48,126 nucleotides of DNA from an uncultured Candidatus Finniella sp. (GCA_964424515.1 CAYRJJ010000003.1:1-48126); one strand, 5' to 3'. Shown: positions 4,420-47,286, numbered from the stretch's first letter. Translations and numbers: made by a program. Notes: a model not told the origin generated them from the letters alone.

Positions 4420-4525
4420 TTAGTGGACACCCGCAAATCCCTGTTTTACAATGTATATAATATCGTTTTTTACGCAGTTAGTAGACATATCGTCTTTTAA
4501 TCGATTAAAGAGACAGTTTTAAGCC
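4420..4525. repeat. Left copy of the 106-bp inverted repeat; res-like region directly upstream of tnpR
   Basis: It aligns without gaps to the reverse complement of 47181-47286, with 96/106 identical by my count (73/76 within 4420-4495). It ends 1 nt before the tnpR ATG. It has an AT-rich core and a short dyad (GTAGAC-N5-GTCTt). Confidence 0.85.
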
Positions 4526-4526
4526 C

Positions 4527-5105
4527 ATGAGACTATTCGGATACGCCAGAGTTTCAACCAGCCAACAATCTCTTGATATTCAAATCAAGGCGCTGAAAGA
4601 ATCCGGGGTCAAGTCACATCGGTTATTTACAGATAAGGCCAGCGGCAAGGATGCAGAGCGCAAAGGATTACAGCTCTTGCGCGTTAAAGTGGAACCAGGG
4701 GATGTCATCCTGGTCAAAAAGCTCGACCGACTTGGCCGGGATACTGCCGATATGGTTCATCTGGTCAAAGACTTTGACGCCATGGGCGTACATATCCGGT
4801 TCCTCGATGACGGCATCAGCACAGAAGGCGAAATGGGAAAAATGGTGGTCACCATTCTGTCAGCCGTAGCCCAGGCAGAGCGTCACCGTATTCTTGAACG
4901 CACAAACGAAGGTCGCCTGGAAGCCAAACTTAAAGGGGTAAAGTTTGGCCGGAAGAGGACAATTGACCGGGAAAAAATAATATCGCTTTACAAGTCCGGT
5001 ATGGGCGCAACCGCGATAACGAAACAAACCAAAATTAGCCGCTCTACTGTCTATAAACTTGTCAAAGATCATTTAACTTCATCAGGTGAAGCCTTGAAGG
5101 CTTGA
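4527..5105 (+). CDS. tnpR: Serine recombinase, Tn3/gamma-delta resolvase type
   Basis: [19 protein letters not shown] (catalytic Ser), [38 protein letters not shown], and a C-terminal [13 protein letters not shown]. It is collinear over its full length with Tn3-family TnpR as I recall it. Confidence 0.93.
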
Positions 5106-6079
5106 ATCTCTTCAACAGAAATTCCCGTTAATTCAAAAATCTCCACCATGCTTATGCCTTTAGCAAGCATCCGCCTGGCCATGGATTGTTTTTCTGCCAA
5201 ATGTTTCTGCCGTTCTTCTTCTCTGCCCTTGGTGATTCCAATTTGCTCACCCTTGGTGATTCCAATTTGCTCACCCTTGGCGATTCCGATCTCTTCACCT
5301 TCTTGCCTGGCTGTCCTGATGGCATCAAGATCATCCATCAGAGCAATTTTGGCCTTTTCATAAGCCAGACGCTCTTCCCGGGTCCATGTATGCTTTTCCA
5401 GTATCTCATAAGCCTGCTTGACCTCATTGGGCGCTCTGGAAGGGACATCGCGCATATTGGGCGCATTTTTCATCATGAATATCCAATAATCTTCTTCCGT
5501 TTCCAGATCTTTTTCTTCCTTGCAAAACTTCGGAAACTCAATAAAGGCATACGACATATCGTTGAGATAGCTCACCCGCGTTTCTCTTTCAATGTTGTGA
5601 TGAAAGCTTAAGTAGCCGACTTCCTTTGGAAAGATAGAGTGATTTAAAAGACTGAGAAGGGTTACAGGCTTGAGGGAAAGATAATCTTCAGCCCTTTCCA
5701 GCTGGCCACAGTAAAGATGGGAGACATAATGCTGAATGCGCTGCACATAGTGCTGCATGTACTTGTTTTGCACTTCAATAATGTACTGGAACCCTCTTTG
5801 ATCGGTGCACAGGACATCCAGAATCGACTTTTTGGATTCTGCGGTCATGGGCAGACGTTCTGTGGGAAGGAACTCAACCGATCGAATGCGTCGCTCACCC
5901 GTGAGTCTAAGCGTCGAATTGAGAAAGCTTCGGGTTAAGTCTTCATGCTGTACAAAGACCTTTTTGAAGGCCACGTCATTTCTGGGATTAAAGAAGCGGG
6001 GTTCAAATTCTCCGGGATCATAGCCTGAGACATCTTTGTTAAAGCCATTATTATCATCCCGGCCATGATCGTTGTCCAC
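5069..6079 (-). CDS. Rpn/YhgA-like PD-(D/E)XK nuclease family protein (putative transposase), copy 1
   Basis: NDVAFKKVF followed by [20 protein letters not shown] is the PDDEXK_2-type core. It has a 3 x 8-aa repeat (GEQIGITK) and a helical C-terminal tail. The start codon is GTG at 6079. Its 3' end overlaps the tnpR 3' end by 37 nt (convergent). Confidence 0.75.
5226..5297. repeat. 3 x 24-bp in-frame tandem repeat inside Rpn-like copy 1
   Basis: cccttggtgattccaatttgctca occurs twice exactly, plus a diverged third unit. It encodes GE(E/Q)IGI(A/T)K x3 on the minus strand. Confidence 0.9.
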
Positions 6080-6252
6080 TTGCTGGATCCTTCCTGAAAG
6101 CTATTAAATAGACGTAAAGAAATCATTTCTCATTCATAGATGCGGCAAAGCCTCTCCCCATCTCTTTGGAGTACTATAACATAATTTCTCTTGAAGATAT
6201 GCCTGGTTTATTTTCTTAGCTTAAAGCATCAATATTGATGCCCGCCTTATGA

Positions 6253-6540
6253 TTATGATGGTCTTTTGCCATTGACGGCTTCCTTCAACGCTCTGCCTGC
6301 GGTGAAAGCGGGAAAAAATTTATCCGGAATGGAGATGGCCTCCCCTGTGCGGGGATTACGCCCTGTCCGGGCACTTCTTTTAAAAAGTCTGAAAGAGCCG
6401 AAGCCCACAAGAGTGACGGATTCGCCGTTTTCAAGACTCTCCTGAATGACCTCGAATATGGCATCAACGGCTTTTGACGCATTTGCTTTTGGCATTGCCG
6501 CTTGTTCACAAACTGCATTGACTAGAATCTTCCTGTTCAT
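6253..6540 (-). CDS. hup: HU/IHF-family DNA-binding protein
   Basis: 95 aa. MNRKILVNAV...SVTLVGFGSFRLFKRSARTGRNPRTGEAISIP is the classic HU beta-arm motif. Confidence 0.9.
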   Translation of the reverse strand: MNRKILVNAVCEQAAMPKANASKAVDAIFEVIQESLENGESVTLVGFGSFRLFKRSARTGRNPRTGEAISIPDKFFPAFTAGRALKEAVNGKRPS

Positions 6541-6730
6541 AAAATTTTCCTTTCATCATTATGAGATGATTTTCTGGACCACACATCTTACTGGCATGTT
6601 AGACGCCTGTATTCAGTTTCAGTAGATTTATCCAGACTTCCCCCCATTTGTCGAGGCATTTTTATTTCTCTTCTCCTTTTGGCCGTCATCTTTTAAGTCC
6701 ATGCTTTTGACAAATTTTATACTCTGGCGC

Positions 6731-45667: not shown

Positions 45668-45691
45668 TTTTTATAATTTCGTTGGCTTAAT

Positions 45692-45715
45692 AAATTATTG
45701 CGGCCGCAATAATTT
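45692..45715. repeat. 24-bp perfect palindrome AAATTATTGCGGCCGCAATAATTT downstream of parB (terminator and/or parS candidate)
   Basis: It is perfectly self-complementary and followed by a T-run, 25 nt after the parB stop. Confidence 0.6.
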
Positions 45716-46016
45716 TTATATCAACTCATTGCGAGTTTTGAGCTAAAAAGGGAAGCGTGAAGGTTCGTAAAACAAATTTTCAAAATATTTTGAGTTTTAT
45801 GATATAACGGTCAATTACCATCTGATAGCTTTTTTTATAGATGGAAAAATTATTATGGAGTGTTATGACCATATTTTACATTATTTTGAAAGTGCTATCC
45901 GCTTGCAGAAAGAAAAATATCCCGTTGTGGCATGCCTTAAAACCATGATTACAAGTTAACATGCCTGGAAAAAGTGATAAAAGGTTTTTAGTGATGACAA
46001 GCGAAGGTATTTACCA

Positions 46017-47159
46017 ATGACTACAGAAAATAAGCACGAAGCTCAACAACTCCTGCAGAGTCTCCACTCTTCTAATCAGGAAGAAGGGTATAGCGATCCC
46101 GCGCATACTTCTCAAAAAGAAGGATCGAAGTCAAAAAGCATCAGAATGACGAATCCCTGTATTGACAGCGTTTTTCAATACGGTTTCCTGGAACCTTTTA
46201 TTCTTAGCGACTTTCTTAATGCTGTCCTCAATTTTACAGGAGAAAATGCTATTGAAGAGATCATCTATCTGCCCCGTGATATGGGTTCTTCAGATCCCAT
46301 GTCTTCTTTTGCCTACCATTTTACAGTTGACATTCGTTGTCGGACGAAGAATAACCACCATTTTCTGATAGAAATGCAAAATGATTTTCGGGATGACTAC
46401 CATCTTAAATCCCTTGTAGAACATTCCCGTATGCTAAGCCGTCTGGATACCGATCAGACGTTGGAGGAGCAGACGCTTCGTGTTGACAAGAATAAGGGGG
46501 ATCTCAACAAGTTCTGGAAAAATGTTGAAGGCCTCTACACAATTGTGATTACGAACAAGGCGTTTCCTGCCGGTAAAATGAAAAGCAGTTATCCTGACGA
46601 GACAATGATGGAGCCTTTTCTGATCAACAATTATGAACTGCGCCATACTGAACAACTGGAACGTCGTTATGGAGATATACCTAACCAGATTGTCCTTTTA
46701 ATGCTGGATAATTTGAATAAGGAAGCTGAAGAATTATCCTCTCCTCTTGAGAGGTGGGCTTACCTGTTTAAGGATCCATCTCTCAAAAGTGGTGTAAGGA
46801 AGATCTCTGAAACAAAGGATATTTCGGATCCTGACCTTGTAGCTGGAGGGAACAGATCCATCAGGGCCTTTATTGATCGAGTCAATATAGAACATCTTCC
46901 CCAGGAGGTTCGGGAACGGTATATTCGGTCCCTTGTTTACTTTAATGACACCATCCTCGATATCAGGGAGAAAGGAAAAGCAGAAGGAAAAGTAGAGGGA
47001 AAAGCAGAAGGAAAAGTAGAGGGAAAAGCAGAAGAGAAAATAGAAGTAGCGAAGCGGATGATCAGGAGGAGTCAACCTTTTGAAGTAATATGTGAAGTGG
47101 CGGAATTAACATTGGAAGTTGTGAAAGAGTTGGCAGATGAGATTACGCGCGGTACATAG
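46017..47159 (+). CDS. Rpn/YhgA-like PD-(D/E)XK nuclease family protein, copy 2
   Basis: DSVFQYGF...FTVDIRCRTKNNHHFLIEMQNDF is the PDDEXK_2-type core. It has a 3 x 8-aa repeat (GKAEGKVE) at the same relative position as in copy 1, and a helical C-terminal tail. Confidence 0.75.
   Translation: MTTENKHEAQQLLQSLHSSNQEEGYSDPAHTSQKEGSKSKSIRMTNPCIDSVFQYGFLEPFILSDFLNAVLNFTGENAIEEIIYLPRDMGSSDPMSSFAYHFTVDIRCRTKNNHHFLIEMQNDFRDDYHLKSLVEHSRMLSRLDTDQTLEEQTLRVDKNKGDLNKFWKNVEGLYTIVITNKAFPAGKMKSSYPDETMMEPFLINNYELRHTEQLERRYGDIPNQIVLLMLDNLNKEAEELSSPLERWAYLFKDPSLKSGVRKISETKDISDPDLVAGGNRSIRAFIDRVNIEHLPQEVRERYIRSLVYFNDTILDIREKGKAEGKVEGKAEGKVEGKAEEKIEVAKRMIRRSQPFEVICEVAELTLEVVKELADEITRGT
46974..47045. repeat. 3 x 24-bp in-frame tandem repeat inside Rpn-like copy 2
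   Basis: ggaaaagcagaaggaaaagtagag occurs twice exactly, plus a diverged third unit. Confidence 0.9.
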
Positions 47160-47180
47160 CGTATTCAATGGCATCTCGAC

Positions 47181-47286
47181 GGCTTAAAACTGTATTCTTA
47201 ATCAATTTGTAGACGATATGTCTACTATCTGCATAAAAAACGATATTATATACATTTTAAAACAGGGATTTGCGGGTGTCCACTAA
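47181..47286. repeat. Right copy of the 106-bp inverted repeat (res-like, no adjacent recombinase)
   Basis: Its reverse complement matches 4420-4525 (96/106). It contains the perfect dyad GTAGAC-GATAT-GTCTAC (47209-47225). It begins 21 nt after the stop of Rpn-like copy 2. Confidence 0.85.

Follow-up and report, generated by a model that had tools for sequence, protein, structure and literature searches.

Two inverted copies of a short repeat enclose most of a contig from an uncultured Candidatus Finniella sp. (GCA_964424515.1, CAYRJJ010000003.1:1-48126), and we find that both are recombination (res) sites of one Tn3/gamma-delta-type resolvase, which is predicted to bind them. The window, that is, the stretch of DNA analysed here, is the whole contig of 48,126 bp. 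The left site adjoins the resolvase gene, tnpR, and the right site, 42.7 kb away and in the opposite orientation, has no such gene beside it. We think it probable, though far from certain, that the left site is a working res, that the right one is an orphan, and that the pair records a module junction or scar whose inverted arrangement is the one that survives. An inverted res pair is an arrangement already documented on plasmids, and an inversion switch is without support here.

The repeat was described in an earlier, sequence-only reading of the contig as a pair of 106-bp units. When 4420-4525 and the reverse complement of 47181-47286 are compared without gaps, the counts are exactly those reported there, 96/106 identities overall and 73/76 in the outer 76 bp, the inner 30 bp contributing 23/30. 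A repeat search extends the arms to 4415-4532 and 47174-47291 (118 nucleotides (nt), 88% identity), and a sensitive self-blastn of the window aligns 4415-4525 with 47291-47181 at 90.1% identity (E=8e-37) and finds no third copy, for a total of two. Over 4415-4526 the arms are separated by zero indels, and their longest perfect runs measure about 29 and 23 nt. Related contigs carry one copy each, directly 5' of a tnpR orthologue. The earlier concern that the unit might be one of many dispersed copies of a small repeat is countered by the count of two in the window and by the two site-II patterns, which have no exact match in genome, metagenome or viral contig collections; near-identity searches of both block ends against plasmids likewise found nothing. 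The features of the two sites are as follows.

4415-4532, plus strand: left repeat arm, beginning at the site-I crossover AT and reaching 6 nt into tnpR
4402-4515, plus strand: left res, 114 bp, placed by alignment with the two reference res sites introduced below
4402-4429, plus strand: left subsite I, crossover AT at 4415-4416, CATAAC centre
4430-4451, plus strand: left I-II spacer, 22 bp
4452-4487, plus strand: left subsite II
4491-4515, plus strand: left subsite III, proximal to tnpR
4516-4526, plus strand: tnpR 5' leader, GTTTTAAGCCC, with 10 of its 11 bases the same in the right copy
4424-4452, plus strand: sigma-70-like promoter, TGGACA-17 nt-TACAAT, inside the left res and directed towards tnpR (consensus match only)
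4527-5105, plus strand: tnpR, 192-amino-acid (aa) Tn3/gamma-delta-type serine resolvase, called from Pfam, structure-protein and plasmid matches
47174-47291, minus strand: right arm of the inverted repeat, from the repeat search and self-blastn
47191-47304, minus strand: right (orphan) res, placed by alignment with the reference res sites
47304-47277, minus strand: right subsite I, CGCCTCATAACTT-AT-AATTTAGTGGACA, TTATAA centre, crossover AT at 47291-47290
47276-47255, minus strand: right I-II spacer
47254-47219, minus strand: right subsite II
47215-47191, minus strand: right subsite III, 7 substitutions in 25 bp, no indels
47190-47180, minus strand: right leader
47254-47282, minus strand: the same promoter-like motif, TGGACA-17 nt-TAAAAT, in the orphan copy and directed towards the 3' end of the Rpn gene (consensus match only)
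47157-47179, minus strand: possible, weak remnant of the first tnpR codons (ATG to TCG, then GAGA...ATACGC)

As references we used the res sites of the tnpA-res-tnpR segment of a Nitrosomonas plasmid transposon (L002, annotated with a Tn3-family transposase) and of a Tn3-like element (L001), and both arms align with both of them, subsite after subsite. The match to the L002 res amounts to 79.5% over 73 nt (E=5.5e-13 locally, 3e-8 against all plasmids). Tn3/gamma-delta-type res sites typically span about 114-120 bp, with about 5 helical turns from subsite I to II and about 34 bp from II to III. The half-sites are inverted, about 12 bp long and of the TGTC type (TGTCCACTAA, TGTATATAAT, TGTCTACTAA, CGTCTTTTAA and TGTCTCTTTA), and in each copy subsites I and II lie 54 bp and subsites II and III 33.5 bp apart, centre to centre, within a total of 114 bp; the corresponding values are 54, 33.5 and 114 bp in L002 and 53, 34.5 and 114 bp in the Tn3-like element. 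Published Tn3 res sites also measure 114 bp and are bound by three resolvase dimers (PMC9943657, PMC2428073). The proposal that the repeats are res, with the left copy where res lies in Tn3-family elements, is thus borne out by the subsite alignment with the res of a tnpA-bearing transposon, the length and the matching spacing. The GTGGACA motif that marks the right half of subsite I occurs a second time in the left flank, at 4388-4394, 35 nt outside the real one, and this second occurrence may be chance or the trace of an older site.

The open reading frame (ORF) at 4527-5105, whose ATG follows the 106-bp left copy after 1 nt, as the sequence-only reading had it, matches Pfam Resolvase (6e-39) together with HTH_7. 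Among solved proteins its 192-aa product is closest to Tn3 resolvase (5cy1, E=5e-85) and gamma-delta resolvase (1gdt, E=7e-84), with weaker matches to the invertase Gin (1.7e-24) and to Sin (4e-17), and thousands of Tn3-family TnpR proteins in plasmid records share 71-77% identity with it, so that the type of recombinase named earlier stands; an exact look-up returned no identical record. Read from the alignment, the catalytic S10 is kept, as are R8, R2, R32, K54 and E56. On the strength of work on gamma-delta and Tn3, we take R2, R32, K54 and E56 to be regulatory-interface residues, and no deregulating change of a known type was seen in the alignment with Tn3 and gamma-delta resolvases. Given these residues and the Tn3/gamma-delta match, the protein is presumably a regular, topologically selective Tn3-type resolvase.

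The arms become homologous at 4415, where the central AT of subsite I begins with its A, and to the left of this crossover AT the two copies agree at 3/13 bases. The same boundary appears in metagenomic relatives, whose resolvases are 95-99% identical to that of the window: homology of L003, L004/L005 and L019/L020 to the window sets in at 4412-4413 and continues rightwards, and the sequence to the left is different in each. In all, five different left flanks are joined to one res-tnpR unit at the crossover. No tnpA lies next to res in these close relatives. A homology break at the AT of res site I has been published as the mark that resolvase leaves when elements exchange DNA there (PMC7157771), and the breakpoints point to the central AT of subsite I as the probable place of strand exchange. 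The exchanges described for Tn5501, TnTsp1 and Tn4662a break at the same AT (PMC7157771), but the partners here are plasmid backbone modules that lack tnpA, and both recombinant sites are on one molecule. The left half of the left subsite I (CGTGCTCGTTTTC) is unrelated to the left half in any relative. The left half of the right subsite I agrees with that of L004/L005 at 10/13 bases (a shared half-site of 13-16 nt), and no flank homology to L004/L005 was found beyond it; with its TTATAA centre and consensus-like left half, the right subsite I is more canonical than the gene-proximal left one (CATAAC). As a separate observation on the left flanks, a 45-nt stretch at 1232-1276, 3' of a Sel1-repeat gene, is 87% identical to L004 3959-4003 and L005 2410-2454, in otherwise unrelated sequence.

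The arms are mosaic. From the right half of subsite I to subsite II (4415-4490) the left arm agrees with the right arm at 72/76 positions, with L003 at 65/76 and with L004 at 62/76, that is, 95% between the arms versus 82-86% to every relative. Over subsite III and the leader (4491-4526) the corresponding counts are 28/36, 32/36 and 35/36, or 78% to the right arm versus up to 97% to the relatives (L004), and the two segments differ (Fisher p=0.017). The outer segment groups the two arms with each other, and the inner segment groups the left arm with the relatives, whose tnpR genes match that of the window at 573/579 (L003) and 542/579 (L004) positions. Since a crossover at the site-I AT cannot move sequence internal to it, resolvase alone is not enough to produce this pattern. 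Either gene conversion or homologous recombination homogenised the outer segment, or the left copy received a new site III-tnpR part by exchange with a module like that of L003 or L004.

The right copy combines a good site I, a site II, a degraded site III and a tnpR leader with the lack of a resolvase gene, and, in agreement with the sequence-only reading, tblastn finds no second recombinase near it. Just 3' of the right leader the next few bases are kept, with TCG where ATG stood, and homology fades within about 20 nt. We read the right site as the orphan res of a second res-tnpR unit that has lost its gene, an order of events that we infer from this layout. Each copy has the 3' end of an Rpn-family gene in front of it, and an HU-family gene lies close to the left one.

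5069-6079, minus strand: Rpn-family PD-(D/E)XK gene, 336 aa, which converges on tnpR with a 37-nt overlap
6253-6540, minus strand: HU-family gene (Bac_DNA_binding 7e-30), 1.1 kb from tnpR and at the position given for it earlier
46017-47159, plus strand: second Rpn-family PD-(D/E)XK gene, 380 aa, whose stop codon and the inner end of the right arm are about 15 nt apart

A long diverged duplication was considered as the source of the pair and is ruled out, because 87 N-terminal residues of the two Rpn proteins align at only 30% identity. Of the three explanations put forward in the sequence-only reading, a scar left by a cointegrate or module duplication comes closest to the evidence (leader without gene, homology bounded by the crossover, mosaic arms), with the exception of that long duplication. 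Searches of the window for a surrounding Tn3-family transposon were negative: tblastn with the L002 TnpA, a DDE transposase that in this family has about 1000 aa, finds no tnpA remnant in it (best E=1.7), a search for a Tn3-type terminal repeat (about 38 bp, GGGG...ACG..TAAG) gave one match, inside a tra gene and at chance level (expected 0.43), and the inner core of the L002/gamma-delta terminal repeat has no match in the window with up to 3 mismatches. The terminal repeats of L002 itself were missed by the repeat search, and its left one was read straight from the sequence. The unit resembles Tn3 and gamma-delta (Tn1000) in its close resolvase, its 114-bp res of three dyad subsites with a central AT and Tn3-like spacing, and the placement of subsite III near tnpR, and differs from them in lacking tnpA and a terminal inverted repeat, in its location, a contig with conjugation genes and parAB from an uncultured bacterium, in the non-canonical left half of its gene-proximal subsite I and in the orphan inverted res 42.7 kb off.

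In the explanation that we favour, the left site would provide the intact tnpR with its operator, its promoter and its site of recombination, and would most likely resolve multimers or cointegrates of a conjugative, plasmid-like replicon. Resolvase would occupy subsites I, II and III as three dimers, and two res copies in direct orientation, as in a dimer of the replicon, would wrap into a synaptosome before strands are exchanged at the central AT of subsite I. The right site would be the remnant of a second res-tnpR unit whose gene was deleted, and the similarity of the outer 76 bp could stem from gene conversion between the copies or from a later swap of the left site III-tnpR part. The sharp outer end of the repeat at the site-I crossover would follow because modules join at res subsite I in this family, and the inverted pair would survive because resolution of a direct pair would excise the 42.7-kb arc; inversion of that arc is probably rare or absent. 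Tn3 resolvase is about 1000-fold or more slower on inverted res sites (PMC9943657), and res-bearing TIME copies are inverted in 135/142 TIME-COMP replicons, direct repeats being unstable (PMC13367494). What had been called an unusual orientation is thus the common surviving arrangement. Because Tn3/gamma-delta res sites take three resolvase dimers and need no architectural protein, by which they differ from Sin- and beta-type sites (PMC2428073), the HU gene is better read as conserved backbone than as a cofactor.

Several points weigh against this explanation. The relatives cover the left junction only. The near-identity from the right half of subsite I to subsite II, which includes the 22-bp I-II spacer, means that the copies interacted or are of recent shared origin, and an interaction, if it was a reciprocal exchange, would have inverted the arc. 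The local alignment behind the tnpR remnant is not significant alone (shuffle p=0.33) and its position beside the leader is its sole support, so that the case for a lost tnpR rests on the leader. The orphan copy is free of indels over 112 nt and has a better subsite I than the left copy, for which reason it may still be a working site. The contig ends do not overlap, so that the replicon is only a candidate for a circular plasmid. Finally, inversion in vivo has been reported for Tn1721 and pWW53, and knotted substrates with inverted res sites are efficient for Tn3 resolvase, all as cited in PMC13367494; inversion between inverted res sites in vivo is likewise cited for Tn2501 in PMC12217951.

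It is accordingly conceivable, although we consider it unlikely, that the resolvase flips the 42.7-kb conjugation arc, occasionally or regularly, at the subsite-I AT; if the replicon is circular, the flip may instead take the complementary short AT-rich arc with the Sel1-repeat gene, the insertion sequence (IS) fragments and the MNT module. Such a flip would be expected to join the left flank to the right inner sequence (...GCTCGTTTTC-AT...CGTCTACAAATTG...) and the right flank to the left inner sequence (...CATAACTT-AT...CGTCTTTTAATCG...ATGAGACT). Subsite I with its central AT, subsite II and the original spacing are indeed kept in both copies without indels, and the canonical left half-site, which is found at the tnpR end in L004/L005, sits on the orphan copy here, as one site-I flip would give exactly. 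The half-site shared with L004/L005 is, however, just 13-16 nt long with non-homologous flanks beyond it, the regulatory-interface residues are kept and no known deregulating change is seen, and no gene or promoter is positioned for its expression to be switched by a flip. The selectivity of Tn3 resolvase against inverted sites, about 1000-fold or more (PMC9943657), also argues against inversion, as do the 7 substitutions in the 25 bp of the orphan subsite III, all three subsites being essential according to PMC12217951. If rare inversion does occur, a large conjugation module would join the published cases in which Tn3-family resolvases invert DNA in vivo, and no new kind of system would be involved.

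Such pairs have precedents: the inverted res sites of Tn1721 were reportedly described by Altenbuchner and Schmitt in 1983, those of Tn2501 by Michiels and Cornelis in 1989 and those of pWW53 by Yano et al. in 2007. Like these and the TIME-COMPs, the window has two res sites per TnpR, inverted and on one replicon, an arrangement that PMC13367494 presents as stable and over-represented. In the precedents both orientations have reportedly been demonstrated, whereas the window is known in one orientation and one of its two sites lacks the gene, its subsite III being degraded.

Independently of resolvase, the 118-bp repeats could have undergone gene conversion or RecA-type homologous recombination, which would have homogenised the outer 76 bp and perhaps flipped the arc at least once; we hold this to be distinctly unlikely. 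It would account for the mosaic, with 4415-4490 closer between the arms than to every relative and the left 4491-4526 grouping with the relatives, where a site-I crossover, unable to carry internal sequence, fails by itself. The perfect runs of about 29 and 23 nt are short, though, and a swap of site III-tnpR with an L003/L004-like module gives the same pattern.

Quite improbable is a programmed inversion switch, in which the Tn3/gamma-delta resolvase homologue flips the conjugation (or accessory) arc and the mosaic is the footprint of repeated exchange. With inverted sites and a recombinase gene beside one of them, the window resembles the Hin, Gin and Cin systems. Invertases use short crossover sites plus a Fis-bound enhancer. 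The protein here matches Gin less well than Tn3 resolvase (1.7e-24 versus 5e-85) and the repeats carry subsites II and III; a Fis-bound enhancer was not searched for. The inversion proposed in the sequence-only reading leaned on the beta recombinase of pSM19035 and on the HU gene, and this analogy is not supported. The window shares with beta/six, where beta both resolves and inverts, and with Sin/res, the two being HU- or Hbsu-dependent systems, a small serine recombinase and, 1.1 kb away, an HU-family gene, but its protein is a close Tn3/gamma-delta homologue and distant from Sin (4e-17 versus 5e-85 for Tn3; the beta recombinase sequence lay outside the comparison). Sin-type sites are 86 bp long (res/six sites of this group about 86-90 bp) and take two dimers plus HU or IHF, the latter bound between the two recombinase subsites (PMC2428073), whereas the site here has 114 bp and three dimer-type subsites, and Tn3 res works without an architectural protein.

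Intramolecular replicative transposition by Tn3-family elements leaves inverted transposon copies that bracket an inverted segment. A transposon of this family might have been copied in inverted orientation, with the intervening DNA inverted and both copies since decayed to res fragments, as the closest characterised res, that of the tnpA-bearing L002, would allow; we regard this as very improbable, for the window has neither a tnpA remnant (tblastn, best E=1.7) nor a Tn3/gamma-delta-type terminal repeat, the copies lose homology at the crossover and do not continue into a shared tnpA side, and the close relatives are without tnpA next to res. The idea that the 106-bp units are the ends of a composite mobile unit, or a dispersed miniature repeat, is barely credible and has in its favour only their inverted orientation at the ends of a large block, given that the window contains just two copies, the 5 bp beside the arm ends are no target duplication (TTTTC versus AAGTT), the arms end at the centre of res subsite I and not at a transposon terminus, no transposase, tnpA or Tn3-type terminal repeat is found at the ends, and the site-II patterns have no exact match in the three collections.

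The remaining genes are consistent with a conjugative element, and the main ones are listed here.

10321-36397, strand not assigned: conjugation region with Ti-type TraD-like protein, MobA/MobL relaxase-helicase, coupling protein and F-type TraG/H/N/U/C/B/K
11012-15817: MobA/MobL relaxase-helicase gene
43846-45667, plus strand: parA-parB partition genes, in a segment of 29-37% guanine plus cytosine (GC)
47728-48051, plus strand: nucleotidyltransferase (MNT-like) gene, beyond the site-I end of the orphan res

The sequence-only reading had called the enclosed DNA a transfer, replication and partition block. Transfer and partition hold up (F-type type IV secretion system, coupling protein, MobA/MobL relaxase and parAB), while no replication gene was identified in the window; nor was a tRNA gene found in it. 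Between the sites there are also a RecD2-type helicase and a ProQ/FinO-domain protein. We take the combination of F-type tra genes, MobA/MobL relaxase and Ti-type TraD-like protein to resemble Rickettsiales conjugative elements. TraC (28883-31456) is only about 32% identical to the best PLSDB plasmid records, which come from Protochlamydia naegleriophila, Aquicella lusitana and sphingomonads. The gene order tnpR-rpn-HU-RecD2-...-TraD is kept in L004/L005 at about 93% nucleotide identity. Towards its 3' end the relaxase-helicase gene contains a tandem duplication of about 297 nt (15274-15783; 213 nt at 82%, with a 141-nt core at 96%), and a Gp49-like toxin and HTH_3 antitoxin pair (HigB/HigA-like) lies at 15820-16423, between the relaxase and coupling-protein genes. 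Two paralogous ORFs (37266-38774, 502 aa, and 41535-43346, 603 aa) share 350 nt at 76% (37768-38117 versus 42478-42827) and have no Pfam, NCBIfam or PDB match; they could be replication or maintenance genes, and one of them borders the GC drop near 43,000.

Base composition had been said to shift close to both copies. This is so at the left copy, where GC goes from 0.26-0.37 (before about 4200) up to 0.42-0.52 (after 4400), and not at the right one, with 0.42-0.43 inside and 0.38-0.46 outside; the right-hand drop, from about 0.48 to about 0.30, comes at about 42,500-43,400, roughly 4 kb inside the right copy. Because of this change near 43,000, parAB and the second Rpn gene go compositionally with the outside flanks. 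No reciprocal junction, such as site-I integration of the GC-rich block would leave, is evident by eye at 43250-43900, where no formal search was made. A terminator-like G-run/C-run hairpin (GAAAGGGGGGGAGTTTTCTCCCCCTTTC) with a T-rich tract is found at 43499-43526, in 29% GC intergenic DNA between the 603-aa ORF and parA. At the start of the contig (37-879) are two adjacent IS4-family DDE transposase fragments, which are probably why the assembly breaks there.

At the other end, the 157-aa partner of the MNT-like protein is intact in the relatives L021 and L024 and present in L023 and L025; in the window (47728-48126) it meets a stop after 18 codons and its similarity resumes in another frame, which makes it a frameshift, a pseudogene or a contig-end error. 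Tn3-type transposition modules with a toxin-antitoxin pair next to site I have been described (PMC7157771). MNT proteins 95-97% identical to that of the window (P0242, P0243) are encoded on short contigs. We considered the MNT gene as part of such a module with site I and rejected this, its homologues being found with the 157-aa partner in chromosomal or parAB contexts with no res or tnpA near.

Homologues of the 380-aa Rpn protein that are 80-83% identical (L006/L007 8180-9930 and L009-L016) are directly preceded by a co-directional resolvase gene, and the convergent tnpR/rpn overlap of the window recurs in L004, L005 and L017; together these suggest a recurrent association of resolvase and Rpn genes. 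In L003 (2620-6210) the tnpR-adjacent Rpn gene looks split, as if by an insertion: its HTH_Rpn_C and PDDEXK_2 fragments are kept apart by a 232-aa ORF and the gene for a large serine recombinase of 574 aa. The 380-aa protein has its best homologue (P0121, 98%) in a collection of eukaryote proteins, where it is listed as a Trinity transcript. By implication, a near relative of the replicon lives with, or contaminates, a protist sample, and the match suggests a protist-associated bacterium as the host.

If the left site is a working res and the right one an orphan, as we favour, a feature that looked odd would come down to well-understood biology, in which plasmid modules are joined at Tn3-type res sites and pairs of such sites last only when inverted. 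The contig would then offer a clean case of homology breakpoints placed exactly at the site-I crossover, in conjugative elements that are poorly known.

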